A stretch of 53,267 nt of DNA from the IMG/VR virus record IMGVR_UViG_3300012665_000878, positions 1-53,267 of that record; one strand, written 5' to 3'. The notes under the pieces were generated by a model. That model saw only the letters and a list, made by a program, of their open reading frames with translations. It was not told the DNA's origin and did not search any database. How positions within the stretch are numbered: position 1 is the stretch's first letter; each line of letters starts with the position of its first letter. This stretch comes from a virus (Duplodnaviria; Caudoviricetes). The translations under genes and the position numbers were made by a program. This document shows, piece by piece, positions 24,189-46,469 of the stretch.

Positions 24189-25086
24189 TTTTTATTTTTG
24201 TTAAAGGTATGTCAGCAGCACAAGTACAGTAGTCTCTAGAGCACACGATAGCAGAAGTAGGTACAATAAATGTTCCGTTATAAATGTTACCTAGGCTACC
24301 ACCAACTCGACAGGTAGCACGATGTACTTCACCATCCCAGTTAATCATAAGACTTTCTAAGCCAGCGTTACATGACCAACCTTTAAATTGATTTTGATGT
24401 TTTTTTATAATATCGTTGGCGTGAACAATGTGTTCGTTGTCTACTCGAACATTAGGTTTAGCTGTGGCATCGTTATCTAAGATCCATTGTAAGTCTTTAC
24501 CGTCATAGCGCATATCATCAAATACATTATGATCACCTTCTGTCCATCGTATTCTTCGCACAGCAAATTTAACATTAATACGATTTAAAAAATCCACGGC
24601 TGCTCGCACATTGTCCATGTGTTCATGATGAGCCATTATGTTAACAAAGAAATCTACATGGGTAGCTGTAAAATACAATTCGTGAATTGTAGACAATACT
24701 CTTTGCCAGTCGTGTTCAAAATGTAAACTGAATACTAGGTGGTGAAAGAATTCTGAATTATCCGCATACCATTTATGATTGCGTGTTCCATTAGTAGTAA
24801 CGTTGACCCAAAATACACCTTTGCGTTTCATGTATTCAAATAAATCTTCTATGTCAGGATGAACACAGGGCTCTCCTCCTGTTAGACTGATGCGCAAGGG
24901 TCTATCTAATTCGCATAATCGATCAACAGTTTTTTCTAAAATATCAATAGGCGTGTGGGGACTGTAACTGTCATGGATACTGCTAGGGCAATATGAACAA
25001 TCATAGTTACAGCGTTTACCAATATTCCATTCGACCTTTATTTGGTCTTGATGAGGCCACGCACTGGTAATCTTTTTAAACGTCAT
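24181..25086 (-). CDS. radical SAM protein
   Basis: CNYDCSYC, TGGEP, CNAG...CTCAAD; related to 14198..15160. Confidence 0.9.
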   Translation of the reverse strand: MTFKKITSAWPHQDQIKVEWNIGKRCNYDCSYCPSSIHDSYSPHTPIDILEKTVDRLCELDRPLRISLTGGEPCVHPDIEDLFEYMKRKGVFWVNVTTNGTRNHKWYADNSEFFHHLVFSLHFEHDWQRVLSTIHELYFTATHVDFFVNIMAHHEHMDNVRAAVDFLNRINVKFAVRRIRWTEGDHNVFDDMRYDGKDLQWILDNDATAKPNVRVDNEHIVHANDIIKKHQNQFKGWSCNAGLESLMINWDGEVHRATCRVGGSLGNIYNGTFIVPTSAIVCSRDYCTCAADIPLTKIKND

Positions 25087-25681
25087 TCGTTAACCTTTGT
25101 ACAGCAGGACAACTACTCGTGATTCTCATACTTGCTACAATTCTTGGATTTGGTGTAGGGTTGTGTACTGCGTGTGGTACATCAACTTTTAATATCGCAG
25201 GTCGATCTAATGTAAATCTAGAAACTTCTTTTATATTTTTATAGTCCACACATCCTCCGCCCCAAGCATGATTACTACCGGGCAGTGTAGGATCTATAAG
25301 TTCATAATGTAATGTTTCGCTTTGATCACAATTTATCAAAGGTATGTTTAGTACGTATTCAGGAGCAAACGTTGTAGGGGCAACTCCTTTTTCAAGATGC
25401 TCATAATCGTCTTTGCTATCAATATGGATGTAGACAGAACCAGGATCATTTGGATCCATACTATCTAAATTAGTTTGCCTAAACGCAATAAAAATTATCT
25501 GTAATAATTCTATTCCCTGTTCTTTCAATTCTAAAATTAATTCAGGTAGATCGTTTTTAAATTGATCTAAATTTACACCAGTCCATGCTTCTTTGGCAAA
25601 GCCTTTTTCTTCTCGATAACTGATTAGCGTATCTCTATGAGCTTGCCAATTAGGATACTCAAAATAATGATAATATTTCAT
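25076..25681 (-). CDS. Fe(II)/2OG-type oxygenase-like protein
   Basis: IHID, LNIPL and PHAVHN...R. Confidence 0.6.
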   Translation of the reverse strand: MKYYHYFEYPNWQAHRDTLISYREEKGFAKEAWTGVNLDQFKNDLPELILELKEQGIELLQIIFIAFRQTNLDSMDPNDPGSVYIHIDSKDDYEHLEKGVAPTTFAPEYVLNIPLINCDQSETLHYELIDPTLPGSNHAWGGGCVDYKNIKEVSRFTLDRPAILKVDVPHAVHNPTPNPRIVASMRITSSCPAVQRLTNDV

Positions 25682-26973
25682 AGGTATAATTTAAACTCCG
25701 GAACCACTGTTTCGAGAGGACCTTGATTTCTAGAACGATCTAAATTTCTATTAAAACTTATAAAGTCATTCCATAGATTGTTTTGATCTTTGGCTTGTAG
25801 ATAATTGATATTGTCTTGTATTTGTTGATGTGTCACTTTACCAAGTAGTGGATTTTTCTTAACAGGTTCCCATTGGTCTACACGTAATGCTACGGTTTGT
25901 AATCTTTCAATTGCTAGTTTTTTTAGTTCTGTGGGCAGCACCTGCGCTGACAAGCAGTTAGGATAGCTAACACGATGACTGTAGAATACAATGCCCATAG
26001 TGTTAATAAAGTAATCAATACAATCTGCGGCTTGTAGTATATTACCGGCTTGCGCTGTGAACGCACCTACTACACGACTTACGTTAGGTATCTTTTTTAT
26101 CTCTTTAATGTTTTCTTCAACTTGATTAAAATCGCCGTTGCTGCGAATGTAATTGTAAACATTGTGAATGCCGTCAATGCTGACGTTAACGGCAATGCTT
26201 CTAAAATGTGGCCAATAGTCATGAATAGTTCTTCCTTTGCTAATTCCAAGTGTTGTGCCATTTGTGGCATATTTTAATTCTATGTTAGAGCCATAGGGCT
26301 TCAACATATCTAAAATTTTGTAATGCTGTGGATCCATTAGTGGTTCGCCACCAGCAAACTCCACACGTCTAAAGTGTGGTAATAGTTTTTCAAAACTTGT
26401 CCACCAATTATCAGTATCTTCGAACGGACATAGATACTTGCTGGTCTGTAATCCCAATCGATCAATTACCGGTACTAGATAGTTATTTTCTTTTTTATAA
26501 AATTTTTCTACTTGATCCCAATCATTCCAGCTAGTACTATCCATAGGATGACACATGCGGCATTTTAAGTTACACAAATTGTTGAGTTTAATCTCCATCG
26601 TGGGCAACTCGAATGGCATTATTTCTTGTAGTGGAGTGTTAGGGTATAAGTTAACTCTAGCTTCTGGAATGTCACCTTTGATATGACGCTGTCGTAGACT
26701 TTCAACTCCTTGATCTTCTAGAGCAAAGCAAGGTTCACATTCTGGCGGCCGCTCTCCAGACAATACCTGTCTACGGATTCGACGCATAACTTCATTGTTC
26801 CATATGTCTTCAAGACTAGAGTCTTGTATAAATCCAACAGGATGACTACGGCAACAGGCTTTAACAGCGCCGTCTTCCCTAGTTGCTAGTCCTGTAAATG
26901 GATGTAAGCAGAATGTTTTACTTTGATTGTTCAATGGCCCAAGCCCTTTCTTTACACCAGAAACACCGACCAC
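25678..26973 (-). CDS. radical SAM protein with N-terminal twitch-like domain (true start possibly TTG at 26934)
   Basis: FCLHPF...ACC...CEPC, CNLKCRMC, AGGEP. Confidence 0.9.
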   Translation of the reverse strand: MVGVSGVKKGLGPLNNQSKTFCLHPFTGLATREDGAVKACCRSHPVGFIQDSSLEDIWNNEVMRRIRRQVLSGERPPECEPCFALEDQGVESLRQRHIKGDIPEARVNLYPNTPLQEIMPFELPTMEIKLNNLCNLKCRMCHPMDSTSWNDWDQVEKFYKKENNYLVPVIDRLGLQTSKYLCPFEDTDNWWTSFEKLLPHFRRVEFAGGEPLMDPQHYKILDMLKPYGSNIELKYATNGTTLGISKGRTIHDYWPHFRSIAVNVSIDGIHNVYNYIRSNGDFNQVEENIKEIKKIPNVSRVVGAFTAQAGNILQAADCIDYFINTMGIVFYSHRVSYPNCLSAQVLPTELKKLAIERLQTVALRVDQWEPVKKNPLLGKVTHQQIQDNINYLQAKDQNNLWNDFISFNRNLDRSRNQGPLETVVPEFKLYL

Positions 26974-27679
26974 AAATAGGTACCGGTTGTCCTGGCTTAT
27001 ATGTTTTGTAATCTAGATCAAAAAACACTTCTGGACGAGTTGTGCTGTCACCTTCGCAACTACGAGTCATGTAAAATAAATCTTGTTTGTTTATTTTATT
27101 ATAGGTATCGACTACCCAACTTTTATCTACAAATCTAAATGGGTGGCATGCTAACACGCCCATGTGTTCCATAACTTTAAGATGTTGATTATCATCAGTT
27201 GGATCTATGTCTCTAGTTGGCATTCCTTTAAATGTGACATTTTTAGGATTCCTAGTGACTGCGTTATAATAGGCGTTTACTTTGTTGTGATGACAGACAT
27301 ACTCGCCAAATGCCCTAAGTTCAACATTGTCACCACTAACCAATTTACCATATTCGTCTACAATTGTCGGCCCTTTATCTCCCCATTCTAATTCGGGTGC
27401 TATAAAGTTAGTGTGTCTATGAAATGTGATATTTGTAAATTCATTTAACAACCATCTAAACACAGTCAAACTATCATGTTCTTGCCATGGTTTGGTTTTC
27501 CACATTCTAGTATGACTTATGATGTGTACGGTAAATGGTTCTATGTCATTTTTTTGAATATGGTCGCATAACAAGTATGCTAACAGCGCAGAGTCAGCGC
27601 CACCACTGAGGCTTATGGCTATACTGGACCAATTATAATCAAACGGTATTTCAACGTCATTTACTGTAAATGAATTCAT
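26918..27679 (-). CDS. PP-loop ATPase, QueC-like
   Basis: SLSGGADS PP-loop; TRSCEG and CGRCFWC zinc site. Confidence 0.7.
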   Translation of the reverse strand: MNSFTVNDVEIPFDYNWSSIAISLSGGADSALLAYLLCDHIQKNDIEPFTVHIISHTRMWKTKPWQEHDSLTVFRWLLNEFTNITFHRHTNFIAPELEWGDKGPTIVDEYGKLVSGDNVELRAFGEYVCHHNKVNAYYNAVTRNPKNVTFKGMPTRDIDPTDDNQHLKVMEHMGVLACHPFRFVDKSWVVDTYNKINKQDLFYMTRSCEGDSTTRPEVFFDLDYKTYKPGQPVPICGRCFWCKERAWAIEQSK

Positions 27680-27718
27680 GATATATTTAAGCTAGTTATA
27701 GTAGCACATAAATATTTC

Positions 27719-28387
27719 ATGATTACTAAACAGATATGGACCTGCCCAGAAGGTCTAATTGAACAAGCACTAAAAGAACAACCAATTACAGAAAGTGTTG
27801 TTCTTAATGAACCAACAGGTGATTTCTTTTACGATAGATGGCAAATTAAAGACTTGTACAAAAATACACTTTGGCAACAAGTATTAGACTCTATGCCAAT
27901 GTCTATTGGACAAGCACGTATTATTAAAATGGAACCTGGTGAGAGTTATATGGCCCATGCTGATATAGATAATCGTTGGCACTTAAACTTGACAGGTGAG
28001 CAAGCATACTTGATTGACCTAGACGAAAAAATCATGTACGCATGTGAGAGAGATAACCGCTGGGCATATATGGATGCTAGTCGTATACATGCGGCTACTA
28101 ATTATGGGTCTGTTCCACGTTTACAATTAGTAGTACGAGAGCCATTGCGTACTAGTCGTGTACCAGTAGACCTAGTTAGCATTAGTATAGAGCCAGCTTA
28201 CGAGCAACATGACTTTAGATATAAGTTTGATAAAATCTTTAGTCCGTTTTTAAATCGTGCTAACTGGGGACATAAATTGGCAAACTTCGCACACACAACA
28301 TCCGCAGTGTCATTTAAACTAGAACGCGAACTACTTGAAAAATTTGAAAAACTCGTAACGCCGGAGTTTAAAGTAACTTATGCTTAA
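27719..28387 (+). CDS. Fe(II)/2OG oxygenase (AspH-like)
   Basis: PGESYMAHAD and IHAATNYG...RLQLV. Confidence 0.7.
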   Translation: MITKQIWTCPEGLIEQALKEQPITESVVLNEPTGDFFYDRWQIKDLYKNTLWQQVLDSMPMSIGQARIIKMEPGESYMAHADIDNRWHLNLTGEQAYLIDLDEKIMYACERDNRWAYMDASRIHAATNYGSVPRLQLVVREPLRTSRVPVDLVSISIEPAYEQHDFRYKFDKIFSPFLNRANWGHKLANFAHTTSAVSFKLERELLEKFEKLVTPEFKVTYA

Positions 28388-28823
28388 AGTTGGAATCACT
28401 GGTACGACTCGCGGACTTGGCCAAGCACTACATGACCATTTTGTCGATAAAGGCTGTCATGTAACGGCTTTCAATAGGGGATCGGACATGAGTGCCGCAG
28501 CTGGTTGCGACTTGCTTATCAATAATGCCTACGGCATACAAATGGATATACTTAACCAACTGTATGCAAGTGTGGGCAAGATGGTTGTCATGGGCAGTAT
28601 AGTTACAAATTTTCCTGACGTAGAAATGCCAGACTATACTGTACAAAAAACAAAATTAGAAGAACGTGTGTTAGAGCTTAACCTTCCTAACATACTGTTA
28701 TTAAAACTATCCAGCACTGCCTACAACGATTCACAAGTTGTTATTGATGCGATCGAATACTGGCTAGCAAATCCATTAGTGAATGTTATATCGTTTAGAG
28801 CAACTGGAGCACCTAACAGATGA
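28380..28823 (+). CDS. short SDR/Rossmann-fold protein
   Basis: ITGTTRGLG, INNA and YTVQK. Confidence 0.7.
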   Translation: MLKVGITGTTRGLGQALHDHFVDKGCHVTAFNRGSDMSAAAGCDLLINNAYGIQMDILNQLYASVGKMVVMGSIVTNFPDVEMPDYTVQKTKLEERVLELNLPNILLLKLSSTAYNDSQVVIDAIEYWLANPLVNVISFRATGAPNR

Positions 28824-29407
28824 AAGTTGTAATTACAGGACACACATATGGTATAGGTAAAGCCTTGTACGACAGTTTTAAATCTGCCGAGTGGGAGGTT
28901 GTTGGCCTTAGTCGCAGCAACGGCTATGACATAGACTCAGATTTTGACAAGGTGGTAGACGCTGCCGCAGGCGCAGACTTGTTTATTAACAATGCTTACC
29001 GTGATAAGCAACAAACAAAATTAGTACACGCATTAAAAGATAAAGTTAAGAAGATGATTGTGATGGGTAGCGTAAGTAGACATTACCCAGAGCTTATACA
29101 TACAGACTATGTACATGACAAGCAAGAGTTAGCAGAAGCCTGTAGACTCGTTAGTATAGATCCTAACGGCATTGATATACTACACTTGGATTTAAGTTTT
29201 ATAGAACAGCCGATTCCCAATGACGACCCAACTGCGTTTTCTAGTGATTATGTTATTAAGTTCGATGAGATCCTAAGTGCTATTGATTTTTGGACAACTA
29301 ATCCTAAAATTAGACAAATGGAATTTGTATGGAAACTAACACCGTTTGTCTACAGTCAACTTAAACAAGCGTTTCCTAACCTAGACCCATCGCGGGTACA
29401 GTTCTAA
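28820..29407 (+). CDS. short SDR/Rossmann-fold protein
   Basis: ITGHTYGIG, INNA and YVHDK. Confidence 0.7.
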   Translation: MKVVITGHTYGIGKALYDSFKSAEWEVVGLSRSNGYDIDSDFDKVVDAAAGADLFINNAYRDKQQTKLVHALKDKVKKMIVMGSVSRHYPELIHTDYVHDKQELAEACRLVSIDPNGIDILHLDLSFIEQPIPNDDPTAFSSDYVIKFDEILSAIDFWTTNPKIRQMEFVWKLTPFVYSQLKQAFPNLDPSRVQF

Positions 29408-29932
29408 ATTAGCAAGGAACTTGTCTGGGTATATGCGCCAGACGGTTTGATCTGTGTTGCGATAATTCATTTCACATACACGCTCTACAATACCCAACTT
29501 AGCCAGTGTAGGAAAGTAATGTCTATGTACAAGACGTTGACTTGCTACTTGGCTTTCATTGCTGGTAGCATAAAGTTCACCTTTTGCCCAAGCAATACAC
29601 GTAGGTAGTAAAAACTGATCTGTCAAGTTCTGATGTTCAGCAATTAACTTTCTAGGTGTTATAAGTCCACTATTAAGTCTAGCAGTTCCAAATGTACAAG
29701 TACGTGCTAGTACACGATAAGCATTAGGACCCATTTCATTAAATGAATGGGCAGCAACACTACCGACAGCCTTGTCGTCTTGATATAGTATCCATGCCGC
29801 CCATTCTGGCTCATTACGAAAGCAATCAATCATTGCACGTTGACTAGCATTGTTAGCAAAGCCACGCTGTTCTGCTTCCGCATAGAACTCGGTTAAATTT
29901 AAATCTTCAGTCCAAGGTACAATTTTATACAT
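29381..29932 (-). CDS. hypothetical protein, GNAT-like fold suspected
   Basis: WILYQDDKAVGSVAAH...YRVLAR beta pattern; weak. Confidence 0.45.
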   Translation of the reverse strand: MYKIVPWTEDLNLTEFYAEAEQRGFANNASQRAMIDCFRNEPEWAAWILYQDDKAVGSVAAHSFNEMGPNAYRVLARTCTFGTARLNSGLITPRKLIAEHQNLTDQFLLPTCIAWAKGELYATSNESQVASQRLVHRHYFPTLAKLGIVERVCEMNYRNTDQTVWRIYPDKFLANLELYPRWV

Positions 29933-30866
29933 TTTTTAACTTAATAACTTTTTCTGGAGTTCTGTAAAAAACATGGTCACTGGTGTTAGGACACATGTCG
30001 CATTGTTCTATGCCTTTGTATTTGTTGTTTGAAAACTCTGTTACTTCGTCTGCCGAACAACACATAAGATCCAATGGTTGATAGCTTAGGTACTTTTGCC
30101 AATCTGGATCATCTTGACTATTATGATATTCGAGAAACTTTTTTAATGTGCCTAATGCTGCGCATTTATATAATTTTCTATCATACAAAAAAGTACAGAA
30201 TGCGCTACAACAACCTTTTTTATAAGACCCTTGCGGATCTCCGGTCATAAAAGGTTTTGGCTTATTGTGTATTAAAGAATAATTTGCTTGAAATTCATCT
30301 TGAGATTTAAAAAATACTGTTATTCGGCCTTGTTGATTTAAGTAGACCATTTCTTTCTCAAAATCACCTAGAGAGTCAACTGGCGCATCAACAAGTACTT
30401 GATCAAAAAAATCACTGCTAGACCCTTTGACTAGCCCTAGTTTAGAAACTAAATTATTAGTCGACTGTTTGAGTTCGGTACTTAATGATTGATCATCAAA
30501 CGCTGAAAAATGATCACATATAACTAATGTTAAATTATAGCTGGTTATTAATCTAACAATTTCGTTTATTTTTTTATCTATCATTCTTCCATTGGTCGGC
30601 ACTAGAATATTCGTATGCTGATCAAAACTTCTTATATGTCTAGCTATTGTTTCTAATTTGTCTAGATAAAATAATGCTTCGCCGCCCAGAATAGAGTAGT
30701 TGTCTATATGGAATTTGTTTCTAGTTAAATCAATCCCTTCTATTATAGATTCGATCAGCGGATCATGAGTTTTGCTTTTGATAACATCACTTCTAGTGTC
30801 GCAATACAAGCAAGATAGATTACACTTATTGCCAATGAAAATATCTAATATTTTAATGCTGTTCAT
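29925..30866 (-). CDS. radical SAM protein
   Basis: CNLSCLYC, LGGEA, LYKC...CDMCP. Confidence 0.85.
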   Translation of the reverse strand: MNSIKILDIFIGNKCNLSCLYCDTRSDVIKSKTHDPLIESIIEGIDLTRNKFHIDNYSILGGEALFYLDKLETIARHIRSFDQHTNILVPTNGRMIDKKINEIVRLITSYNLTLVICDHFSAFDDQSLSTELKQSTNNLVSKLGLVKGSSSDFFDQVLVDAPVDSLGDFEKEMVYLNQQGRITVFFKSQDEFQANYSLIHNKPKPFMTGDPQGSYKKGCCSAFCTFLYDRKLYKCAALGTLKKFLEYHNSQDDPDWQKYLSYQPLDLMCCSADEVTEFSNNKYKGIEQCDMCPNTSDHVFYRTPEKVIKLKNV

Positions 30867-31548
30867 ACAGTGTAATAGCAGTATCCATAAAGTCACTAGG
30901 AAAGTTTGTTTTAAAACTTTCAAATGCTAATCGTTGAATAGTTGAAAAAGAAGTCACAGCGTTTACATCAATTCCCATAGCAGCCATTTTAGGAAATAAA
31001 TCTGTTTGCCTATCTTCACTGATATGACTCATTACACTGCTTAAAGAAATCATAGGATCTGTATTTTCGTAACAGAAAAAATAATTGATACTTTTTAGTT
31101 TACCATCAACAACAAAATAACTGCTAGGGTGTAGGCTGTATTTGTAAATTCCTAGATCTTTATGTGCTTTAAAAATAGACAACATTTGATCTTGCCAATT
31201 AGGCAATACAGTATCATAATTGCTGGCAAAACTCTGTTGCCAAAAGTCGTCACCATCTATAGCATAGAATATTTTCTTGTGAGTTAAATCTATATCCAAA
31301 ATTACAGGTATATGTTCTGGATAGAAGTCATTCATTAGCGTGATGTATTTTAATTCACGCTGCCATTTTTCTTCCATCAGTGAAGGATCCACTACTTGAT
31401 TTTGGCCACGATGATAATCAGTGTCATTATGATACCATTGACAAAACACCGTTCGTTCTTTGTTAACCAAACTGGTATAGATTAGATTATTCCGACAAAG
31501 CCCTTTGCCTGGAACGTTGTTGTAGTAATATTCAAAGTCGTTGTTCAT
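30853..31548 (-). CDS. hypothetical, kinase-like fold suspected
   Basis: WQRELKY, PVILDID, YKYSLHPSSYFVVDGKLKSIN. Confidence 0.5.
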   Translation of the reverse strand: MNNDFEYYYNNVPGKGLCRNNLIYTSLVNKERTVFCQWYHNDTDYHRGQNQVVDPSLMEEKWQRELKYITLMNDFYPEHIPVILDIDLTHKKIFYAIDGDDFWQQSFASNYDTVLPNWQDQMLSIFKAHKDLGIYKYSLHPSSYFVVDGKLKSINYFFCYENTDPMISLSSVMSHISEDRQTDLFPKMAAMGIDVNAVTSFSTIQRLAFESFKTNFPSDFMDTAITLYEQH

Positions 31549-31574
31549 ATCGTATATAGCGAATAAGTAGTTGT

Positions 31575-32390
31575 ATGATTCGCGGTATTGGTGGAAAACC
31601 TTATATTAATTTAGACCCGTATTTGGACGTGCAAGGGTTCATAGATTTACATCCTGAAATATGTAAAGGACTTGCTTTGGCAAGAGATTATGCTAAAGAA
31701 GGAACTTGGATGTCTCCCGGCTTTGATCAAAGTCGTGGCAGCTACAAATGGGATTGGAAACCAATATACAAAGCACACGAAGAATACCTAGCACTAGCAG
31801 ATGATCACCCTATCAAAGTTCAAGGTAAAGAAATCTACCCCACAGATTTCAAAGACTACAAACAGCGAAATCTGTTTACTAGATATCTTAAATCAGCACT
31901 AGGTGCCAATGATCCTTACATCTATTATTTCCTTTGGAATGAAGGCAATTGGAACGAACGCAATGCTGAACGTCAAAAGACCGAAGAAAGTCAATACTTT
32001 CCTAACATTGTACAGTGGGTAGAAAATCTACAACAGCAAAACATCATAGACAGGATAGGTCGTGTGATATTCTTCTTATGCGATCACAATGGCAAAGCAT
32101 TTGAGCATAGAGATTTGGATGCTAAAAATGGTGTATTTGAAAATGACTATTATACTCCTCATAACAACGAATTCATACACATCAGATATCGTACAAAACG
32201 TGGTTTCTATATATGGGATCCAGACACACAAGACAAACACTATGTAAACAGTCACGCAGCTTTTTGGAATGATCAAGATTGGCACGGTGGCGAGCACAGC
32301 CTAGAGCAAGAATATGGACTAAGAATTGACTGTAAATTTACAGACGAATTTAGAAAAAAAATAAAAATAGACCACTTGGAGAATTATTAA
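31575..32390 (+). CDS. Fe(II)/2OG-type oxygenase-like protein
   Basis: EHRD and DWHGG...LRID. Confidence 0.55.
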   Translation: MIRGIGGKPYINLDPYLDVQGFIDLHPEICKGLALARDYAKEGTWMSPGFDQSRGSYKWDWKPIYKAHEEYLALADDHPIKVQGKEIYPTDFKDYKQRNLFTRYLKSALGANDPYIYYFLWNEGNWNERNAERQKTEESQYFPNIVQWVENLQQQNIIDRIGRVIFFLCDHNGKAFEHRDLDAKNGVFENDYYTPHNNEFIHIRYRTKRGFYIWDPDTQDKHYVNSHAAFWNDQDWHGGEHSLEQEYGLRIDCKFTDEFRKKIKIDHLENY

Positions 32391-33541
32391 TGAGTTCTCC
32401 AACATATTGCCCAATGGCATGGATTGGCTTGAACATATTGCCCAATACCACAGCACCTTGTTGTTTTTGGTCCGTAGACAATTCTAAAGATATCACTGTA
32501 GATTTTGACAAAGTAAGAGCCGACATGTTAGAAGGAAAACATATTTCTAACTGCTCGCAATGTTACAAAACAGAAGAATTGGGATTAGAAAGTCGACGAC
32601 AAAAATATATAAATCGTTTTGGAATTGTCAACGAAGTAAAGACTAAAATTTTAGATATTAGCATAGACAATTTATGTAATTTAAAATGTCGAGGCTGCGC
32701 AAGTACTAACTCTCATTTGTTGTATAACGACGAAATAGAATTATACGGCGAAGCAATAGCTGATAAAAAATATATAGAAAATAATTTTTATCAAGATAAA
32801 GATTTTTCTCAACTAGAAGAAATTAACATTTCCGGTGGCGAACCTTTTTTAAGTAAGCAAACAGAAAAGTTTATCAAATATTTAAAAGACACCGGAATTT
32901 TAAAAAAAGTAAAAATTGTTGGAATTGTAACTAATGGCACTGTAACACCTTCTTCAGTTTGGGTTGATGCTTTTAATGATATTCAAACATTGAGTGTTAC
33001 TATGAGCATAGATGGTATTGGTCACTTAAATGAGTATTTTCGAAGTGGAGCAAATTTTGAAGTATGTAAACAACAAATGGATTTTTTTAATAATTTAATA
33101 GATCAACGATTGAATTCAAAATTAAATCAAACTACTCAAATTAATATCAACACAACTGTAAGCATTTACAATGTAAATTTATTAGACAACATTAAAAAAT
33201 TCTTTACCAAATACTATCCTAGATTTGTACTTGAAAGAAGGTTATTAGTGTGGCCAGCGCAGCTTTCAATTAAAAATGCTCCCAACGATTTAAAAACAGA
33301 AATAAAAAAGACCTTAGATTCTAGTCATACAGATATTTTAAGTTATCTAGATGAAGAGGGTCAAAACCTGTTTGATCATTTTTTAAACTATCATCAATCA
33401 CTAGACGCTATAAGGTCTGAAGATTTAAAAGACAGCAATCTATTATTGTCAAATTATATTCAAGATTATATTAAAAAAAATCCAACCAGAGGTAATAGCA
33501 AAGATTATTTTATAACTCAGATCAAAGGAATAATAGGTTGA
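32390..33541 (+). CDS. radical SAM protein with N-terminal twitch-like domain
   Basis: YCPMAW...PCC...CSQC, CNLKCRGC, SGGEPF. Confidence 0.9.
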   Translation: MSSPTYCPMAWIGLNILPNTTAPCCFWSVDNSKDITVDFDKVRADMLEGKHISNCSQCYKTEELGLESRRQKYINRFGIVNEVKTKILDISIDNLCNLKCRGCASTNSHLLYNDEIELYGEAIADKKYIENNFYQDKDFSQLEEINISGGEPFLSKQTEKFIKYLKDTGILKKVKIVGIVTNGTVTPSSVWVDAFNDIQTLSVTMSIDGIGHLNEYFRSGANFEVCKQQMDFFNNLIDQRLNSKLNQTTQININTTVSIYNVNLLDNIKKFFTKYYPRFVLERRLLVWPAQLSIKNAPNDLKTEIKKTLDSSHTDILSYLDEEGQNLFDHFLNYHQSLDAIRSEDLKDSNLLLSNYIQDYIKKNPTRGNSKDYFITQIKGIIG

Positions 33542-34032
33542 AATTTATAGGTAACTTTTTTCAGTGGATTGATCCGTTGTGGGAACACAAAATTCTAACA
33601 ACAGAAGGGCAAGCTCGGCCACGTGATTGGCCACCTTCTACTGCTGTAGAGTCTGCGGAGTACAGTAGATACGAAATGGCAGGTTATGATTTAAATGCTG
33701 TTAACTGGTGGGTATACGAAGAACAAGATTTAAACTTGTCTATTACTCCTACATGGACAACAGGCAACGTACACTGGTGGTTTACTAAAATGATACCTGG
33801 ACAATATATGCCTATGCACACAGATCCACACGCACACGACAAACCCTGTAAACGCTATTGGATGCCTTTACAAGATTACTGTGCTGGGCATGTATTTGTT
33901 TACAAAGACAAAATGATCACAGATTACAAGACCGGAGATGTGTTTCAGTTTGATAATGAAACTGATGTACATGGTGCCGCTAACATTGGGCATACTCCAC
34001 GCATTATGTTGCTGATCACGGAATATGAGTAA
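33538..34032 (+). CDS. Fe(II)/2OG oxygenase (AspH-like)
   Basis: PGQYMPMHTD and VHGAANIG...R. Confidence 0.7.
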   Translation: MKFIGNFFQWIDPLWEHKILTTEGQARPRDWPPSTAVESAEYSRYEMAGYDLNAVNWWVYEEQDLNLSITPTWTTGNVHWWFTKMIPGQYMPMHTDPHAHDKPCKRYWMPLQDYCAGHVFVYKDKMITDYKTGDVFQFDNETDVHGAANIGHTPRIMLLITEYE

Positions 34033-35197
34033 AACATACTGCCCTTATCCTTTTAATGGCATTAGCCTACAACCAAATAACATGGTGCTGCCCTGCGGGC
34101 AGTACATGGACTCTGCGCCTTTTCAAAAAATAATTCCTATCAACGAAGTACGAAACAGCGAATATATGAAAGACATGCGGAATCGTATGGCCAATAATCA
34201 GCACGGTATTGGCTGTCAGTGCCCAGCTGAAGAAGAAGCCGGCATAGTGTCAATGCGGCAAAAATCTATAGAAAAGTTTGGCATTGATTATTCAGATAAT
34301 TTAAAAATTGTAGAAATATTTTTTGACAATGTGTGTAATTTAAAATGCCGTAGCTGTGGTAGTAATAATAGTCACTTATGGTTTGAAGAAGAAAAAGAAT
34401 TGTACGGTGTTACGCTGTCACCGACCAAGTATCAAAAAAATACGTTGTACGAAAATTTAGATCTTAGTAAATTAGAAATGGTAGACCTGTATGGCGGCGA
34501 ACCTATGTTAAGCGTTGACGTTGAAAATTTTTTAACAAATTTATGCGACAATAATGTAATTAAAAATATAGAATTATCAATGAGCACAAACTGTACAGTG
34601 ATTCCAAAAGACAATGTTTTAAAAGCTCTACTGTCAGCACGTACTTTAAAACTTGCTCTTAGTATAGATGCGTATGGCGATCTAAACAATATTATTCGAT
34701 CTGGCTCAGACTTTGATGAAATAGTCAATGTCATGAAATTTTTTAAAAATTTGTTTTGGCAAAGACCTACAGGAACTACTACTATTTTAGTTCACAGCGC
34801 AGTCAGTGTGTATAATGTTAATCTGTTGCCCGATTTAGATGATTTTGTTATCAGCAATTTTCCAGAATTTTCTAGCAGCACACAGGTAGTTCAATTCCCG
34901 CTATTTCTAAGTATAAAAAATACCCCGGTCGAATTTAAAAACAATGTCAAACAATTATTAACACACGATAGATATTCTAGCATTGTAAAATACATGGAAC
35001 AAGATGGGGAAGATCTATTTGGTCACTTTATAAATTTTCATACTAAATTAAATGAAATACGACAAGAAGATCTAGGTAATAAAAATCAGTTATTGTCTAC
35101 GGCTATTACTGATTATAAACAAACACCAAGCGTCAAAGAAAGTAAGATATTTTTTAAAAAAATTATCAACGACATGAAAACCAATATGTTGGCTTAG
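34025..35197 (+). CDS. radical SAM protein, paralog of 32390..33541
   Basis: YCPYPF, CNLKCRSC, YGGEP. Confidence 0.9.
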   Translation: MSKTYCPYPFNGISLQPNNMVLPCGQYMDSAPFQKIIPINEVRNSEYMKDMRNRMANNQHGIGCQCPAEEEAGIVSMRQKSIEKFGIDYSDNLKIVEIFFDNVCNLKCRSCGSNNSHLWFEEEKELYGVTLSPTKYQKNTLYENLDLSKLEMVDLYGGEPMLSVDVENFLTNLCDNNVIKNIELSMSTNCTVIPKDNVLKALLSARTLKLALSIDAYGDLNNIIRSGSDFDEIVNVMKFFKNLFWQRPTGTTTILVHSAVSVYNVNLLPDLDDFVISNFPEFSSSTQVVQFPLFLSIKNTPVEFKNNVKQLLTHDRYSSIVKYMEQDGEDLFGHFINFHTKLNEIRQEDLGNKNQLLSTAITDYKQTPSVKESKIFFKKIINDMKTNMLA

Positions 35198-36368
35198 TTA
35201 ACGTCTTAACATCAGTTAACTGAAAATCTTTCGCATATCCCCACAACTTAAGATCGCCAGCAAACCCCATAGCTGCTCTGTTTGTAAAATTAACAAACAC
35301 ATTTGGGCATTGTTCTTGTAATTTTTTCAACAGTTGATTTTCTTTAAACACTCTGTATTCTAAATCTGTAAATGCGCAGGTGCCCTCATAACAGAATATG
35401 TTTGATAAATTTAAAAAAGTCTTTTTATTAATGTCAAATAGTTCACTAAGATCAAATTCACTGCCTAGCAAATCTATTTTTTTAAATTCGCAATTAGGAA
35501 ATTTATCTGCCCAATAATTTAAGGCTGTTTGATTGTAATCATAAACTACAACGTCAACAGTGTCATTAACGTAGTTAAGGCCGCTGGCTGGAATTACCAC
35601 CTGAGTTATATCTAAATCTCCAACAGGGTGAACTGTGTCTGTATTTGCTGTGTGTACAAAATCATTAGAACAATAGTTGTATCTAAAATACAGCCATTGA
35701 AGACTTTTATTAAACGCATCTACTGAATCTGGATAGTGATGTATTTTATTTTGACGTAATTTTTCATCAAATACTAACACAGGTAGATCATTATCGAACG
35801 CTATTTTTAAAATATTCCATCCGTGACATTTATGACTATAACTTACTCTAGTATCGCCGCCACTGACCCACAGAGGTGTGTAGTCGTCGTGCCAATTATC
35901 AGGACTACGCCACGGACATTCTTGCTGGTGAGATGCTCCTAGTTCTTGTAATCCAACAGCTGGCTTACCTAATGTTTGATACACATTAAGATTGACTAGA
36001 TAACATTGATGGTGAAGCTCGTAATAGGCGTCCTTTCGATCAAGTACATGCCCTGCTAAGAAGTAATCACTGGCAGTTATTCTTTCTATTTCTTTAAAAA
36101 AATTAGAACCGTTAATAAATTCAGTCCCAATATTAAAAACCACAGCGTGATCATACTTTAATTCACAGGCATAATTTAATAGTGAATCTTCATCTTCTCC
36201 TTGTAATAGATCTATACCTTTGATATAAAGATTAGAAATAGTAAAGTCGGCGATATTTTTTATTATTTGTTTTGTTCGGCCCGGAAGTGTGTGAGAATTA
36301 TCTACCATACAGTAGACTATCGATTTACTATTATTTCTTTTATATTGAATTATGTTGTTGTTTGACAT
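35166..36368 (-). CDS. hypothetical protein
   Basis: 400-aa ORF; no confident family assignment. Confidence 0.7.
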   Translation of the reverse strand: MSNNNIIQYKRNNSKSIVYCMVDNSHTLPGRTKQIIKNIADFTISNLYIKGIDLLQGEDEDSLLNYACELKYDHAVVFNIGTEFINGSNFFKEIERITASDYFLAGHVLDRKDAYYELHHQCYLVNLNVYQTLGKPAVGLQELGASHQQECPWRSPDNWHDDYTPLWVSGGDTRVSYSHKCHGWNILKIAFDNDLPVLVFDEKLRQNKIHHYPDSVDAFNKSLQWLYFRYNYCSNDFVHTANTDTVHPVGDLDITQVVIPASGLNYVNDTVDVVVYDYNQTALNYWADKFPNCEFKKIDLLGSEFDLSELFDINKKTFLNLSNIFCYEGTCAFTDLEYRVFKENQLLKKLQEQCPNVFVNFTNRAAMGFAGDLKLWGYAKDFQLTDVKTLTKPTYWFSCR

Positions 36369-43141: not shown

Positions 43142-44269
43142 ATGACAACACTAACACCAATACAAGAACACTGGGATAACAAAACCCTAAATTATGACCT
43201 AGAAAAATACAACTGGCCTGCCTGGGCACTGTCTGTAGTACAGGAAGTAGCACCTCAAGTAAAGGAATTAGAAACACTACACGAAGTGTTAACCCCTGCT
43301 GAGATTGTTCGAGTAAGTCAGCATGTTCAAAATGCCTGTTCACGCAGAGACTTTATGGAACTATTTGACGAATTTGCTCAGAGCATTGTTCCACAAAGAA
43401 TAGATAACAAGCGATATATGATCCAAAGACAGGGCACCTTGCGTGTAGTAATCCCGCAACAGGCTAAAGTAGGGCGCAGACTAGCGTTTCATCAAGGAAT
43501 CTTTGTTGGCAACGGCCGCGGATGCCGTACAATTTGGACTCCGTTTACTGAAGCTAAAGGCACAAACACTATGTGGATGATGGATTTAGAAATATCTAGA
43601 GAAATTACCAAACGTGTTCTAGAAGAAAAATGGAGTTTAGATCGTTTCGAAGATGAATGTTTGAAACACGCTTGGCCTGTAACACTGAAACCTGGACAGA
43701 GTCATTTGTTCTTCCAAGAACATATCCACGGCAATGTCAACAACGAAGAAGGGTATACTCGTGTTAGCATGGACATGCGCATTCTTATCGAAGGCGAGGA
43801 GTGGGGACGTAGATTGCCAGGCGGATTTATGCGCTTGCCAGGCGACTATGAAGTAACACAAACTGGCGATTACACTGGTAAGAGCTTTATCACATACGCT
43901 GGTTGGAACTCTAAGTTCTCTAAAGACATTCCTTTACCAATGCAACGTGCTATCATAGAACCATATTGCGCAAAAAACAAAATCAGTTACAATAGTTATG
44001 AGTTTGAAAACGAACATATGGATTGGCAACCCGGGTTAGAACATTATATCAAAGAACGTCCAGACGGAATCGTGTTGTGTAGTATGTACTGTCTGACCGA
44101 TGATGTACAACGTCGAAGCGAACTGTTACAATTAGCATTGGATCTCGGTGTTGAATTACACTTTGCTAACGAATTGTGTTCTTTGAAATCAAAAAACGAT
44201 TTAGAAAAAATTGAAACCTATCTAAACTTTGCTGTTTCTAAAAAAGGCGCATACGTTTGGGAAGAATAA
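43142..44269 (+). CDS. StrG-like oxygenase fused to a carbohydrate-cluster-associated domain
   Basis: TIWTPFT, HGNVNN...TRVSMDMR; C-terminal PMQRAIIEPYC...GIVLCSMYCL...LHFANE recalled as LIC12192/TIGR04323-like (unverified). Confidence 0.55.
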   Translation: MTTLTPIQEHWDNKTLNYDLEKYNWPAWALSVVQEVAPQVKELETLHEVLTPAEIVRVSQHVQNACSRRDFMELFDEFAQSIVPQRIDNKRYMIQRQGTLRVVIPQQAKVGRRLAFHQGIFVGNGRGCRTIWTPFTEAKGTNTMWMMDLEISREITKRVLEEKWSLDRFEDECLKHAWPVTLKPGQSHLFFQEHIHGNVNNEEGYTRVSMDMRILIEGEEWGRRLPGGFMRLPGDYEVTQTGDYTGKSFITYAGWNSKFSKDIPLPMQRAIIEPYCAKNKISYNSYEFENEHMDWQPGLEHYIKERPDGIVLCSMYCLTDDVQRRSELLQLALDLGVELHFANELCSLKSKNDLEKIETYLNFAVSKKGAYVWEE

Positions 44270-44291
44270 TGTGGCAAAAAAGCCACATTAT
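44266..44291. terminator. hairpin at the end of the enzyme cluster
   Basis: ATAATGTGGC-AAAAAA-GCCACATTAT perfect 10-bp inverted repeat; no immediate U-tract. Confidence 0.4.
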
Positions 44292-44306
44292 ATGGGTATA
44301 TTTTTC

Positions 44307-44335
44307 TTGACACATAAATAAAAAGACATTATACT
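44307..44335 (+). promoter_or_regulatory. sigma70-type promoter P1 of the tRNA region
   Basis: TTGACA-17 nt-TATACT; spacer contains CATAAATA. Confidence 0.8.
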
Positions 44336-44400
44336 AGATGTAGTTGTTTAGAAGAGCGGTCGCAAAGACCCTACAATTTGCTCAGAATAGCAGATAGGGG

Positions 44401-44429
44401 TTGACAGCCTGACTAAATAAACGTATACT
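44401..44429 (+). promoter_or_regulatory. sigma70-type promoter P2 of the tRNA region
   Basis: TTGACA-17 nt-TATACT; spacer contains CTAAATA. Confidence 0.8.
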
Positions 44430-44479
44430 AAGGACATGCGTTAGAGATAGCGCACAATTTTAAGGAAACATTGAAGCAA

Positions 44480-44620
44480 ATGAAAACGACATCATTTTAC
44501 AGACAACATTGTGAAGCCAAACAAGGCGGCGTTATGCCCTCTTATTGGTCAGCGATTAGTCTCTTTAATAATGATCGTACACCAGAGCTACAACCGGGGT
44601 CCGTGGAGATGTTAGTGTAA
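44480..44620 (+). CDS. putative attenuator leader peptide containing all 20 amino acids (not in ORF track)
   Basis: MKTTSFYRQHCEAKQGGVMPSYWSAISLFNNDRTPELQPGSVEMLV; TAAGGA SD at 44461; in-frame TTG alternative start at 44471. Confidence 0.7.
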   Translation: MKTTSFYRQHCEAKQGGVMPSYWSAISLFNNDRTPELQPGSVEMLV

Positions 44621-44652
44621 ACATAAAATACACTTAAACTTCAAAGGACCCC
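44596..44652 (+). promoter_or_regulatory. antiterminator hairpin
   Basis: Nested pairings GGGGUCC/GGACCCC, UGGAG/CUUCA and AGUGUA/UACACU; mutually exclusive with the terminator. Confidence 0.7.
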
Positions 44653-44681
44653 AGGATTAAAAACCCTGGGGTTTTTGTTTT
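44646..44681 (+). terminator. intrinsic terminator (attenuator)
   Basis: ACCCCAGG-loop-CCTGGGGT followed by a T-rich tract. Confidence 0.85.
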
Positions 44682-44693
44682 ATAAAGGTACAA

Positions 44694-44858
44694 ATGGAAA
44701 AGATAGATTACAAAAAATTAAACGAACGAATTGTTGAACAGGCTTATGAAAATGTTCTAACTAAAGAGCAGTTTCAAAAACTTATTCAAGATAAGTTTGA
44801 ACGTGCTAAAGTATACCAAGAGTCGATGCGTAAAAGTCCGACTTACAGTGTAAATTAG
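44694..44858 (+). CDS. 54-aa hypothetical protein (not in ORF track)
   Basis: AAAGGT SD; MEKIDYKKLNERIVEQAYENVLTKEQFQKLIQDKFERAKVYQESMRKSPTYSVN. Confidence 0.6.
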   Translation: MEKIDYKKLNERIVEQAYENVLTKEQFQKLIQDKFERAKVYQESMRKSPTYSVN

Positions 44859-44861
44859 TAC

Positions 44862-45031
44862 AAAGTGTTATAGGAAACGAGGTCCTAGTCCGCACTTAAA
44901 ACATGGACAAACGGGCGGCCTACCGGATGAAACTGTGGCGAAAACGCAGGAGTATAAATGGTAGCGTATTAAAGTGTTCTATCCTGACCCTTGGAACGGG
45001 CATGGCAGCGTAGCATAGAGCATTTTAATAC
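44862..45031 (+). ncRNA. structured RNA(s), family unknown
   Basis: AAGUG/CACUU, UAGGA/UCCUA, GUCC/GGAC, CUACC/GGUAG and a 17-bp stem spanning 44966-45031. Confidence 0.5.
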
Positions 45032-45061
45032 ACACTCTCCTAGAGAGTGTTACAAATTAAC

Positions 45062-45150
45062 GGAAGTGTGCGCTGAATTGGTTGAAGGCAACGGACTGTA
45101 AATCCGCCACATAAGAAACATTGTAGGTTCGAATCCTACCGCTTCCACCA
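45062..45150 (+). tRNA. tRNA-Tyr(GTA)
   Basis: Cloverleaf, loop CT-GTA-AA, long variable arm, CCA. Confidence 0.9.
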
Positions 45151-45177
45151 AGATAAATAGCTAAAAGGATACCAATC

Positions 45178-45531
45178 ATGATAGCTACCCAAATACAACA
45201 AATTTTTTATGGATGTGAATTTAAAGAGCAAACCGATATCAATTTTCGAGATGATATTGCTTTAGAATTTCAAACATTTGTAAAAGAGTGTGTAGATCAA
45301 GGGCTCATTGAAAATAAATCATCATCTAGTTGGGATCCTACAACTCAAATAGAAACCTCTTATCTATTTTCAAACGATATTACTAAAGCTAGAGAATTTC
45401 AAAAAAAACTTTTAGATTCAAATCTTTATCAAAGAGCGTATGACGCAATGCGCGAACAAGGGTATCACTTATCAGTAGGAATGGTAAATTTTATCGAAAC
45501 TGATGATACACAGTATACCACAATAAAATAA
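45178..45531 (+). CDS. hypothetical protein
   Basis: AAGGA SD; 117-aa ORF between tRNAs. Confidence 0.65.
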   Translation: MIATQIQQIFYGCEFKEQTDINFRDDIALEFQTFVKECVDQGLIENKSSSSWDPTTQIETSYLFSNDITKAREFQKKLLDSNLYQRAYDAMREQGYHLSVGMVNFIETDDTQYTTIK

Positions 45532-45532
45532 T

Positions 45533-45606
45533 TACTCAGTAGTGTAACGGCAGCATACCGGTCTCCAAAACCGTTGGTGGGGGTTCAAATCCCTCCTGGG
45601 TAGCCA
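45533..45606 (+). tRNA. tRNA-Trp(CCA)
   Basis: Loop CT-CCA-AA, T arm, CCA. Confidence 0.9.
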
Positions 45607-45612
45607 CAATGA

Positions 45613-45686
45613 TCCCGGATAGTGTAGTGGTAACACAACAGACTTTGACTCTGCTATTGTAAGTTCGATTCTTACTCCGGGTGCCA
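45613..45686 (+). tRNA. tRNA-Gln(TTG)
   Basis: Loop CT-TTG-AC, T arm, CCA. Confidence 0.9.
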
Positions 45687-45691
45687 GTTAT

Positions 45692-45768
45692 CGGTCCTTA
45701 ACTCAATGGATTAGAGTGCTAGTCTTCGAAACTAGAGGTTGGGAGTTCGAGTCTCTCAGGGCCGGCCA
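45692..45768 (+). tRNA. tRNA-Arg(TCG)
   Basis: Loop CT-TCG-AA, T arm, CCA. Confidence 0.9.
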
Positions 45769-45774
45769 ATCAAT

Positions 45775-45848
45775 GTTGTTCCTAGTGTAGTGGCCGCACA
45801 ACTGTCTGTGAAACAGTTAGAGAGGGTTCGATTCCCCGGTTCAACCCA
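45775..45848 (+). tRNA. tRNA-His(GTG)
   Basis: G-1:C73, loop CT-GTG-AA; two U-U mismatches in the acceptor stem. Confidence 0.8.
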
Positions 45849-45864
45849 ACGAAGTAGAAATATT

Positions 45865-46272
45865 ATGGAAAAAATAAAAACACTAAACACATTAAAGGGT
45901 TCTGTTCGAGAGTTCGATGAACTACTAGGGCGAACATTATACAAGGCAGAAGCAAATGGAGAAACACTAACTCTGTATCTGTCAAAGACAAACTATGTAG
46001 TATTCCGCCATCACCAAAGCTGTTGCGAAAGTGTTTACATAGAAGACATCTGTGGAGATCTTGAAGACCTAGTAGGAGCACCGTTAGTAGAAGCTGAGGA
46101 AGTATCTAACTATGAAGCAGGACCACTAAGTGAATACGAAGAATCTTACACATGGACATTCTATCGTTTTCGTACACGAAAAGGCAGTGTAACAGTTCGA
46201 TGGTATGGTTCCAGCAATGGATACTATTCCGAGGATGTTAGTGTAGAAGTAGTTGACACTACTGTAGATTAA
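45865..46272 (+). CDS. hypothetical phage protein
   Basis: HHQSCCESVYIEDI...WYGSSNGYYSE; start moved to the ATG downstream of tRNA-His. Confidence 0.75.
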   Translation: MEKIKTLNTLKGSVREFDELLGRTLYKAEANGETLTLYLSKTNYVVFRHHQSCCESVYIEDICGDLEDLVGAPLVEAEEVSNYEAGPLSEYEESYTWTFYRFRTRKGSVTVRWYGSSNGYYSEDVSVEVVDTTVD

Positions 46273-46348
46273 GCTACTTTAGCTGATGTGGTCATAGCGG
46301 CGGTCTGAAGAACCGTTGAACTAGGTTCGATTCCTAGAGGTAGCACCA
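46273..46348 (+). tRNA. tRNA-Phe(GAA)
   Basis: Loop CT-GAA-GA, T arm, CCA. Confidence 0.9.
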
Positions 46349-46355
46349 AAGCATT

Positions 46356-46433
46356 GCCCCTGTGGACAAATTGGTAAAGTCGGCTCTCTCAAAAGGAGCA
46401 GTTTTCTCCGTTCGAATCGGAGCAGGGGTACCA
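46356..46433 (+). tRNA. tRNA-Leu(CAA), short variable region
   Basis: Loop CT-CAA-AA, T arm, ACCA. Confidence 0.85.
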
Positions 46434-46440
46434 AAAAAGG

Positions 46441-46469
46441 TTGACAAGAGTTTTTGTTTAACATATAAT
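46441..46469 (+). promoter_or_regulatory. sigma70 promoter, perfect consensus
   Basis: TTGACA-17 nt-TATAAT. Confidence 0.85.

Follow-up and report, generated by a model that had tools for sequence, protein, structure and literature searches.

The leader locus and its tRNA array

We examined a 53,267-nucleotide (nt) stretch of viral DNA (Duplodnaviria; Caudoviricetes; IMG/VR record IMGVR_UViG_3300012665_000878, positions 1 to 53,267; here called the window) in which a short leader open reading frame (ORF) and an RNA hairpin switch precede an array of phage tRNA genes. An initial annotation, made from the bare sequence, had proposed that this leader is an attenuator gating the array. The window is a 53-kb fragment, and the completeness of the virus record is estimated at 14%. 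A close relative of the window phage that is rated complete is a contig of 363,943 bp; its large terminase shares ~52% identity with the terminases of Phosso and PA5oct, both jumbo myoviruses, and 48% with the Atu_ph07 enzyme.

All features of the leader locus described here lie on the plus strand. Upstream of the leader is a gene for a 375-amino-acid (aa) protein, which stops at 44269 and is followed by a hairpin with a T-rich tail (44270 to 44305, read from the sequence). Since the upstream gene ends in a hairpin and T-rich tail of its own, the leader is a separate transcription unit. Two promoters of the form TTGACA-17-TATACT, each with 11 of 12 consensus matches, follow at 44307 to 44335 (P1, also kept in the related locus L068) and at 44401 to 44429 (P2, immediately before the leader). 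The predicted P2 transcript has a hairpin at its 5' end (44437 to 44454; -8.0 kcal/mol), then a Shine-Dalgarno-like TAAGGA (44461 to 44466) that ends 13 nt before the ATG. The leader ORF runs from this ATG at 44480 to a UAA at 44618 to 44620 and has 46 codons plus the stop; the ORF listing starts it at an in-frame TTG at 44471, giving 49 aa. All 20 amino acids are reached by codon 32, and 34 of the 46 codons are distinct. No amino acid is represented by a run of codons, and the rare residues occur once each.

The last eight codons and the UAA (codons 39 to 47) form the 5' strand of a three-tier antiterminator hairpin (44594 to 44655), with the stop codon at the apical loop. Its paired strands are CCGGGGUCC/GGACCCC.GG, UGGAG/CUUCA and AGUGUA/UACACU, and its folding energy is -26.0 kcal/mol (z = -4.78; none of 200 shuffled sequences was as good). 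It overlaps an intrinsic terminator (44648 to 44681) made of ACCCCAGG (44648 to 44655), a 9-nt loop, CCUGGGGU (44665 to 44672) and a U tract (44673 to 44681), at -18.6 kcal/mol (z = -2.96). A scan for consensus terminators missed this one because its loop is outside the scan's range of 3 to 8 nt. Nucleotides 44648 to 44652 and 44654 to 44655 (5 to 7 nt) are common to both folds. At full length, the minimum-free-energy fold of the whole leader RNA contains the antiterminator and not the terminator. Just 5' of the switch is the most conserved block of the leader, the NDRTPE box (44570 to 44587), in which each residue is at least 90% conserved.

Directly behind the switch lie a gene for a conserved 54-aa protein (44694 to 44858) and a structured RNA candidate (44860 to 44990), followed from 45062 by 31 tRNA genes that cover the 20 amino acids. 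Three promoters inside the array start at 46441, 47595 and 48568, with 12/12, 11/12 and 12/12 consensus matches. The first seven tRNA genes (Tyr, Trp, Gln, Arg, His, Phe and Leu-CAA; 45062 to 46433) are upstream of the first of these and hence depend solely on read-through. The parts named in the initial annotation were thus all found where it had placed them: the two sigma-70 promoters, the TAAGGA, the 46-codon ORF with full coverage by codon 32 and 34 distinct codons, the GGGGUCC/GGACCCC hairpin with its mutually exclusive terminator, the 31 tRNA genes and the three internal promoters.

In four freshwater metatranscriptomes, contigs cover parts of positions 44376 to 45199, and one spans the terminator (44643 to 44816); ends, strand and level cannot be read from these contigs, and DNA carry-over is possible.

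Conservation of the leader, the switch and its composition

We collected related loci from IMG/VR with a DNA pattern from the terminator region, which gave 36 contigs, and with an ORF pattern made of the most conserved leader codons, which gave 87 stretches (80 of them used, with chance matches in long ORFs among them). A third pattern, from the 5' untranslated region (5'UTR), matched the contig of L068 alone. Loci were accepted as members if they had an ORF of 36 to 62 aa and a terminator with a perfect stem. This filter passed 87 of 105 loci; eight were rejected (five chance matches, two truncated loci and one natural deletion of the switch), and ten with a start that could not be parsed were left out. 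The 87 member loci comprise 71 unique DNA versions and 68 unique peptides. A profile built from the 68 peptides was run against 1.84 billion cluster representatives and returned 189 protein clusters at E ≤ 0.001, 69 of them at E ≤ 1e-10. Among the 150 profile matches listed, 144 were usable and 140 were new, each representing a separate cluster at 50% identity, which brought the set to 208 unique peptides of 41 to 60 aa. The leader in the window is therefore a member of a large family in jumbo-phage contigs.

The leader frame is open in all 71 unique versions, and in all 71 both other frames carry stops. Lengths differ by whole codons only (42 to 60), the stop codon is UAA in 69 of 71 versions, and pairwise peptide identity has a median of 42% (range, 19 to 98%). 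Each locus has one copy of the leader, as does the complete 364-kb genome. A promoter scoring at least 11/12 is present in 67 of 69 unique upstream regions. In 27 of these 67 promoter-bearing versions (e.g., L085, L118 and L128), the -10 box ends 6 to 10 nt before the ATG, which implies a leaderless mRNA. Another 40 unique versions have a 5'UTR of 20 to 101 nt (mostly 40 to 60 nt) in which AAGGA recurs; by inspection, most of the family's 5'UTRs start with a hairpin whose sequence differs between members.

The link to tRNA genes that the initial annotation had claimed for the window is a property of the family. Of the 64 members whose downstream sequence extends for at least 1.5 kb, 63 have a same-strand tRNA gene within 1.5 kb of the leader (median distance, 454 nt), and all 1,056 downstream tRNA genes are on the strand of the leader. 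Arrays with at least 6 kb of sequence hold 16 to 34 tRNA genes.

When folded singly, each of the 71 unique versions gave the same three-tier hairpin, at -21 to -38 kcal/mol versus -11 to -14 kcal/mol for the terminator, and in every version the hairpin sequesters 4 to 9 nt of the 5' arm of the terminator. In a MAFFT alignment, 96.8% of the cells were paired in the base helix of the antiterminator and 99.8% in the terminator, where five of eight pairs had changed on both sides. The two structures covary through the strand that they share: one shared column forms GC (44), AU (17) and GU (2) pairs in the antiterminator and CG (49), UA (13) and UG (6) pairs in the terminator, and in a second shared column one member has changed on all three strands. 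We built a covariance model because MAFFT was unable to align the apical helix. The resulting alignment was fitted to the structure, and five antisense echoes are among its sequences; in it, 82.6% of the cells were paired, versus 25.6 to 50.3% with slid partners, and 15 of 20 pairs had changed on both sides, in all three helices. Both the ORF and the competing helices are thus kept, with covariation, in homologous loci.

The ORF is held in register with this hairpin. Across the family, the helix starts 15 to 43 nt (median, 25 nt) before the stop codon, and in 35 of 67 members the first base of the stop coincides with, or lies one base before, the final paired base in the 5' strand of the apical helix. 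GGGGUCC is kept even in a subfamily that reads it in another frame; the constraint therefore acts on the RNA. One natural deletion allele, L162 (also seen in the truncated L159; protein P0053), has lost the antiterminator and the 5' arm of the terminator, and its leader ORF extends to 52 to 54 aa.

The amino-acid composition of the leader is constrained as well. All 20 residues are present in 63 of the 68 family peptides. The excess recurred outside the set in which it was first seen: the 140 new cluster representatives have 20 residues in 103 cases, 19 in 33, 18 in 3 and 17 in 1, so that 166 of the 208 unique peptides are complete. Null windows were drawn from 495 long ORFs of the same phage group and loci. 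Among them, 69 of 117,984 windows of 32 aa (0.058%) and 2,624 of 110,559 windows of 47 aa (2.4%) contained all 20 amino acids; the comparison with windows of the same length thus places the leader far above the null (63/68 versus 2.4%). Small ORFs from all six frames were complete in 34 of 938 cases (3.6%), independent draws with the family's own composition in 3.3% and random draws with an even composition in 11.7%.

Because relatives have common ancestry, we added a null in which residues were permuted within alignment columns, so that every conserved position was retained. Such column shuffling of the 68 peptides left a mean of 16.0 complete peptides (standard deviation [sd], 3.1; maximum, 28; 5,000 shuffles) versus 63 observed; for the 140 new peptides the mean was 28.1 and the maximum 44 versus 103 observed. 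Shuffled alignments thus give ~20 to 24% complete peptides. The real ones exceed this because single rare residues move between columns. A single Cys is present in 56 of the 68 peptides but is spread over 19 columns; a single His is seen in 56 peptides, over 13 columns, a single Tyr in 53, over 17 columns, and a single Phe in 43, over 14 columns. Over the 68-peptide and 140-peptide sets, the single Cys, His and Tyr relocate among 13 to 36 columns. Judging from these alignments, a rare residue lost at one site of the leader evidently reappears at another, and selection is on the composition of the leader and not on the position of its residues.

Codon usage shows a similar breadth. The number of distinct codons per leader has a median of 36, versus 28.6 (sd, 2.7) in the null. 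Both Ser codon boxes are used in all 71 leaders, and the combination of 20 residues with both boxes of Ser, Arg and Leu occurs in 50 of 71 leaders versus 0.18% of the null. In the window leader there is a codon for 23 of the 25 anticodon species encoded by the adjoining tRNA array (null mean, 17.9; P = 0.003); anticodon engagement is similar in 16 other loci. Codon adaptation to the phages' own genes is lower in leaders (0.595) than in the null windows (0.736), of which 1.5% fall below the leaders' mean.

Two parts of the peptide do hold their position. One Trp never varies, and each residue of the NDRTPE box is at least 90% conserved in the family. The codons for D, T, P and E are without any synonymous change in the set found through the terminator, which was not selected on the box. 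The distance from W to P is 11 to 13 residues in 138 of 173 peptides (mode, 12; range, 9 to 17), and the DRxP motif is missing from 35 of the 208. Pairing of the box with the apical 5' strand was considered and dropped by eye, the box being constant where the apical helix changes. The Trp and the box together may be the sign of a programmed pause, and the conservation of the box may come from a nascent-chain pause, a polymerase pause or codon-specific reading.

Probable ribosome-mediated attenuation and competing explanations

We folded the P2 transcript at equilibrium with and without a 27-nt mask in place of a ribosome. With no ribosome, or with one at codon 11, 23 or 32, the probability of the terminator was 0.04 to 0.08 and that of the antiterminator base 0.92 to 0.96. 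With the A site at codon 36, the terminator rose to 0.60; at codons 38 to 43 it reached 0.997, and at the stop codon it was 0.87. The antiterminator is thus exchanged for the terminator at codons 36 to 38. A ribosome coupled to the polymerase should therefore cause termination, and one that is delayed in the first ~35 codons, or absent, should permit read-through. This supports the direction proposed in the initial annotation, in which a ribosome at the end of the leader terminates transcription and a stall upstream allows read-through; we infer this direction from the geometry of the locus and from equilibrium folding.

We consider it probable (roughly 0.7) that the element is a ribosome-mediated transcription attenuator that heads a jumbo-phage tRNA operon and surveys the aminoacyl-tRNA pool as a whole; translation of the ORF and the role of the tRNA pool as its signal are inferences. 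Host RNA polymerase would start at a strong sigma-70-type promoter and transcribe the leader ORF of ~47 codons. The transcript by itself would fold into the antiterminator, which hides the 5' arm of the terminator, and read-through would reach the small protein gene, the structured RNA and the tRNA genes. A ribosome that keeps pace with the polymerase and enters the 5' strand of the hairpin (codons ~38 to 47) would free the shared segment, so that the terminator forms and transcription stops. The ORF would serve as a near-minimal sample of the code, nearly always with every amino acid, with both boxes of Ser, Arg and Leu and with ~36 different codons, including many rare ones. If almost any tRNA were scarce, cleaved or poorly charged, the ribosome would then lag before it reaches the switch and the phage tRNAs would be expressed more strongly; the same outcome would follow if translation were lost altogether. 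An untranslated state that is "on" would suit the phage, in that a collapse of host translation or a removal of tRNAs would open the tRNA operon.

Somewhat less firmly, we favor the view that this leader is a "pangram": the speed of a ribosome over an ORF that spells the whole code would measure the complete charged-tRNA pool, and the output would be the phage tRNA operon. Such a circuit would give a homeostatic, on-demand supply of tRNAs and an automatic answer to tRNA depletion, codon mismatch and defense nucleases that cut anticodons.

Several observations weigh against this interpretation. The 13-nt spacing between TAAGGA and ATG in the window is long. Full coverage is not universal, since 42 of the 208 peptides are without one to three residues, most often Cys. 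Under a strict rule, by which only A-site codons at least four codons before the helix count, all 20 amino acids are within the sensing zone in 15 of 67 members (19 residues in 28, 18 in 22 and 17 in 2). The usual absentees are Glu (41) and Val (18), both of which are often at or past the switch point: Glu first occurs in the NDRTPE box, right beside the switch, and Val is often found only in the hairpin strand. These sensing zones are nevertheless far above 35-aa null windows, of which 0.18% have 20 residues, 1.9% at least 19 and 9.8% at least 18. In five cases (three with little flanking sequence), the residues that a leader lacks bore no relation to the tRNA content of its array. Rare-codon use and codon diversity may stem in part from RNA-structure constraint in the last nine codons. 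The invariant Trp and the NDRTPE box are not required by an attenuator and point to a further constraint. The ORF body in the window (44500 to 44595) folds no better than its shuffles (z = -1.0), and no anti-antiterminator or pause hairpin was seen in this copy, the only one folded; untranslated transcripts should therefore read through, unlike those of trp. Finally, as the initial annotation had cautioned, the three internal promoters offer an unregulated route to 24 of the 31 tRNA genes in the window.

The default toward read-through would also fit a simpler switch, which reports only whether any ribosome follows the polymerase (ribosome availability or initiation capacity) and in which the full amino-acid composition has no sensing role. 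The antiterminator wins without a ribosome, no anti-antiterminator was found in the window copy, Glu and Val are often outside the sensing zone, and in the 27 leaderless unique members initiation would be unlike that on Shine-Dalgarno mRNAs. However, such a switch gives no reason for 166 complete peptides out of 208, against 2.4% of windows and ~20 to 24% of shuffled peptides, and leaves the relocating single Cys, His and Tyr and the excess of codon boxes and anticodons without explanation; we regard it as unlikely. The same coverage statistics are unaccounted for if the nascent peptide, with its Trp and then NDRTPE, acts as an arrest peptide that stops the ribosome at the brink of the switch in response to a specific ligand or factor, in the manner of tryptophanase-type leaders, coverage being secondary. 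What speaks for arrest is the conservation of the Trp and the box, the W-to-P distance of 11 to 13 in most peptides and the fact that the box ends two to four codons before the helix, where masked folding is intermediate. Yet that distance ranges from 9 to 17, 35 peptides are without DRxP, and the lack of synonymous change in the codons for D, T, P and E suggests a constraint at the nucleotide or codon level and not a purely peptide-level one. Arrest as the primary function thus seems to us a long shot.

It is also conceivable, if distinctly improbable, that this is an ordinary small protein gene with a terminator of its own, whose hairpin stabilizes or processes the 3' end without any regulation. 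Short phage early genes followed by terminators are common, and the ORF is conserved and has its own promoter. That account is hard to square with two exclusive helices that covary through a shared column, a stop codon that holds its place in the hairpin, GGGGUCC kept whatever the frame, and selection on composition and not on position; moreover, the peptide has no family, repeated Cys or hydrophobic stretch. Least probable of all, we think, is that the folds are set by a factor acting in trans, be it a protein, a small RNA or a tRNA bound directly to the RNA, in place of the ribosome. The terminator loop and its flanks are unusually conserved in part of the family, with a 34-nt pattern identical in 36 contigs. 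This conservation is partly an artifact because the set was found through that pattern, and the loops differ in members found with the ORF pattern. At E ≤ 1, Rfam gave no T-box and no other family above chance level, and a factor of this kind would leave the open ORF, and the stop fixed in the hairpin, unexplained.

An attenuator that reads the whole tRNA pool would extend a familiar design. The trp, his, leu, thr, ilv and phe attenuators of enterobacteria likewise place a short ORF behind a promoter and ahead of an intrinsic terminator and a strand-sharing antiterminator. In the trp/his type, too, the end of the ORF overlaps the 5' strand of the antiterminator, a finishing ribosome leads to termination and an upstream stall to read-through. 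Those leaders, however, carry a run of codons for the regulating amino acid, whereas the phage leader has none and includes each of the 20, the rare ones once. They have a 1:2 protector (pause) hairpin, which was not found in the window copy, where the untranslated default is predicted read-through; and they control biosynthetic genes, whereas the phage leader precedes phage tRNA genes. In T-box riboswitches, which lie before genes with roles in translation, the condition of the tRNA pool likewise determines whether an antiterminator or a terminator forms. There the RNA itself is bound by one uncharged tRNA and no translation is needed, whereas the phage leader has a conserved ORF and would report on all tRNAs at once through ribosome speed.

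Other leaders sense slow translation more generally. In macrolide-inducible erm and in mef/msr attenuation, and in leaders that respond to multiple antibiotics, a ribosome stalled on a short ORF also refolds the RNA, and transcription or translation can then continue into the genes behind it, but these rely on particular arrest peptides and drugs; the phage leader has selected amino-acid and codon coverage and would have tRNA supply as its output. The pyrBI-type attenuator shares the principle that the distance between ribosome and polymerase decides whether a terminator forms, with the opposite sign: there a close ribosome prevents termination, whereas in the phage leader a ribosome at codons 38 to 47 is predicted to raise the terminator to 0.87 to 0.997. 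The tandem mgtCBR attenuators, whose leader ORFs carry proline codons, also let translation speed, via charged tRNA, choose between stem-loops, but for a single amino acid and for bacterial virulence and transport genes, and they are without the full-code composition. The proposed mechanism class is thus textbook ribosome-mediated attenuation; what is new is the leader that covers the full code, the apparent lack of a protector hairpin, the tRNA genes as putative output and the setting in a virus. Full-text literature searches brought up neither a leader ORF that covers all amino acids nor an attenuator located before phage tRNA genes.

The reasons why phages carry tRNA genes, and the timing of their use, have yet to be settled; as far as our searches reach, no regulator of a phage tRNA array has been described. 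The leader of these giant freshwater phages looks like a device that switches on tRNA genes when translation in the cell falters. If so, viral tRNA genes would have a first known regulator, and no earlier attenuator would have been tuned to every amino acid instead of one; the 50-year-old attenuation principle would be widened from one amino acid to the whole supply of translation. A virus would then monitor the tRNA pool of its host and compensate on demand, and tRNA arrays would be linked to host defenses that target tRNA, a link that is directly testable. The element is ~250 nt long, has sigma-70-type promoters and can be moved into reporter constructs; it also offers a finished blueprint for a synthetic sensor of translation capacity. 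Two conserved partners, the small protein and the structured RNA, are flagged by the family as well and would be under the same control.

Genes behind the switch and database searches

The small protein gene has its own Shine-Dalgarno site. Its 57 unique homologues begin 18 to 46 nt after the terminator, and most are 49 to 65 aa long; no Pfam or PHROG family was matched by the small protein. A small ORF is missing from the first 70 nt in 19 members, most of which have the structured RNA immediately after the terminator. The structured RNA candidate is ~130 nt long, and its motif occurs once in 64 of the 87 member loci (e.g., L084:3226-3366). RNAalifold predicted 15 pairs from 29 copies, 12 of them with compensatory changes, and the candidate had no match in Rfam. 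The RNA-library contigs accumulate within it, at 44865 to 44932.

The family was found in IMG/VR contigs and in protein clusters. Near and distant blastn and tblastn searches of 50,697 phage records gave no match to the region, the 375-aa neighbor or the leader peptide (0 matches to the peptide in tblastn at E ≤ 1). Neither Pfam nor PHROGs had a family for the peptide at E ≤ 0.01. An Rfam cmscan of 44250 to 45100 at E ≤ 1 returned two chance-level matches to unrelated families (E = 0.62 and 0.98) and no T-box or leader family. An ORF-pattern scan of genome contigs matched at least 120 loci, with no family member among the matches listed.

In the cultured jumbo phages with the nearest terminases (Phosso, PA5oct, Atu_ph07 and CBB; ~45 to 53% identity), the peptide profile found no member; the lone profile match in cultured jumbo phages (E = 0.003) lies inside a 793-aa frame and was rejected. 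The 2.3 kb upstream of the main tRNA arrays of cultured jumbo phages held no small ORF that has all 20 residues and ends in a terminator. The nearest case was a 42-aa ORF with 18 residue types before a terminator in Atu_ph07, which was not significant.

The 375-aa neighbor is a poor guide to the leader family, since among 80 IMG/VR loci with this gene L068 alone has the leader or any downstream tRNA gene. Within the tRNA array of this relative, ARAGORN predicted a tRNA-Asn with the unusual anticodon ATT (L068, 11496 to 11567). Elsewhere in the window, positions 33 to 1805 and 19821 to 36368 encode a CHASE2-adenylate/guanylate cyclase protein and at least five radical-SAM/SPASM enzymes in one region, with hydroxylase-like genes adjacent.

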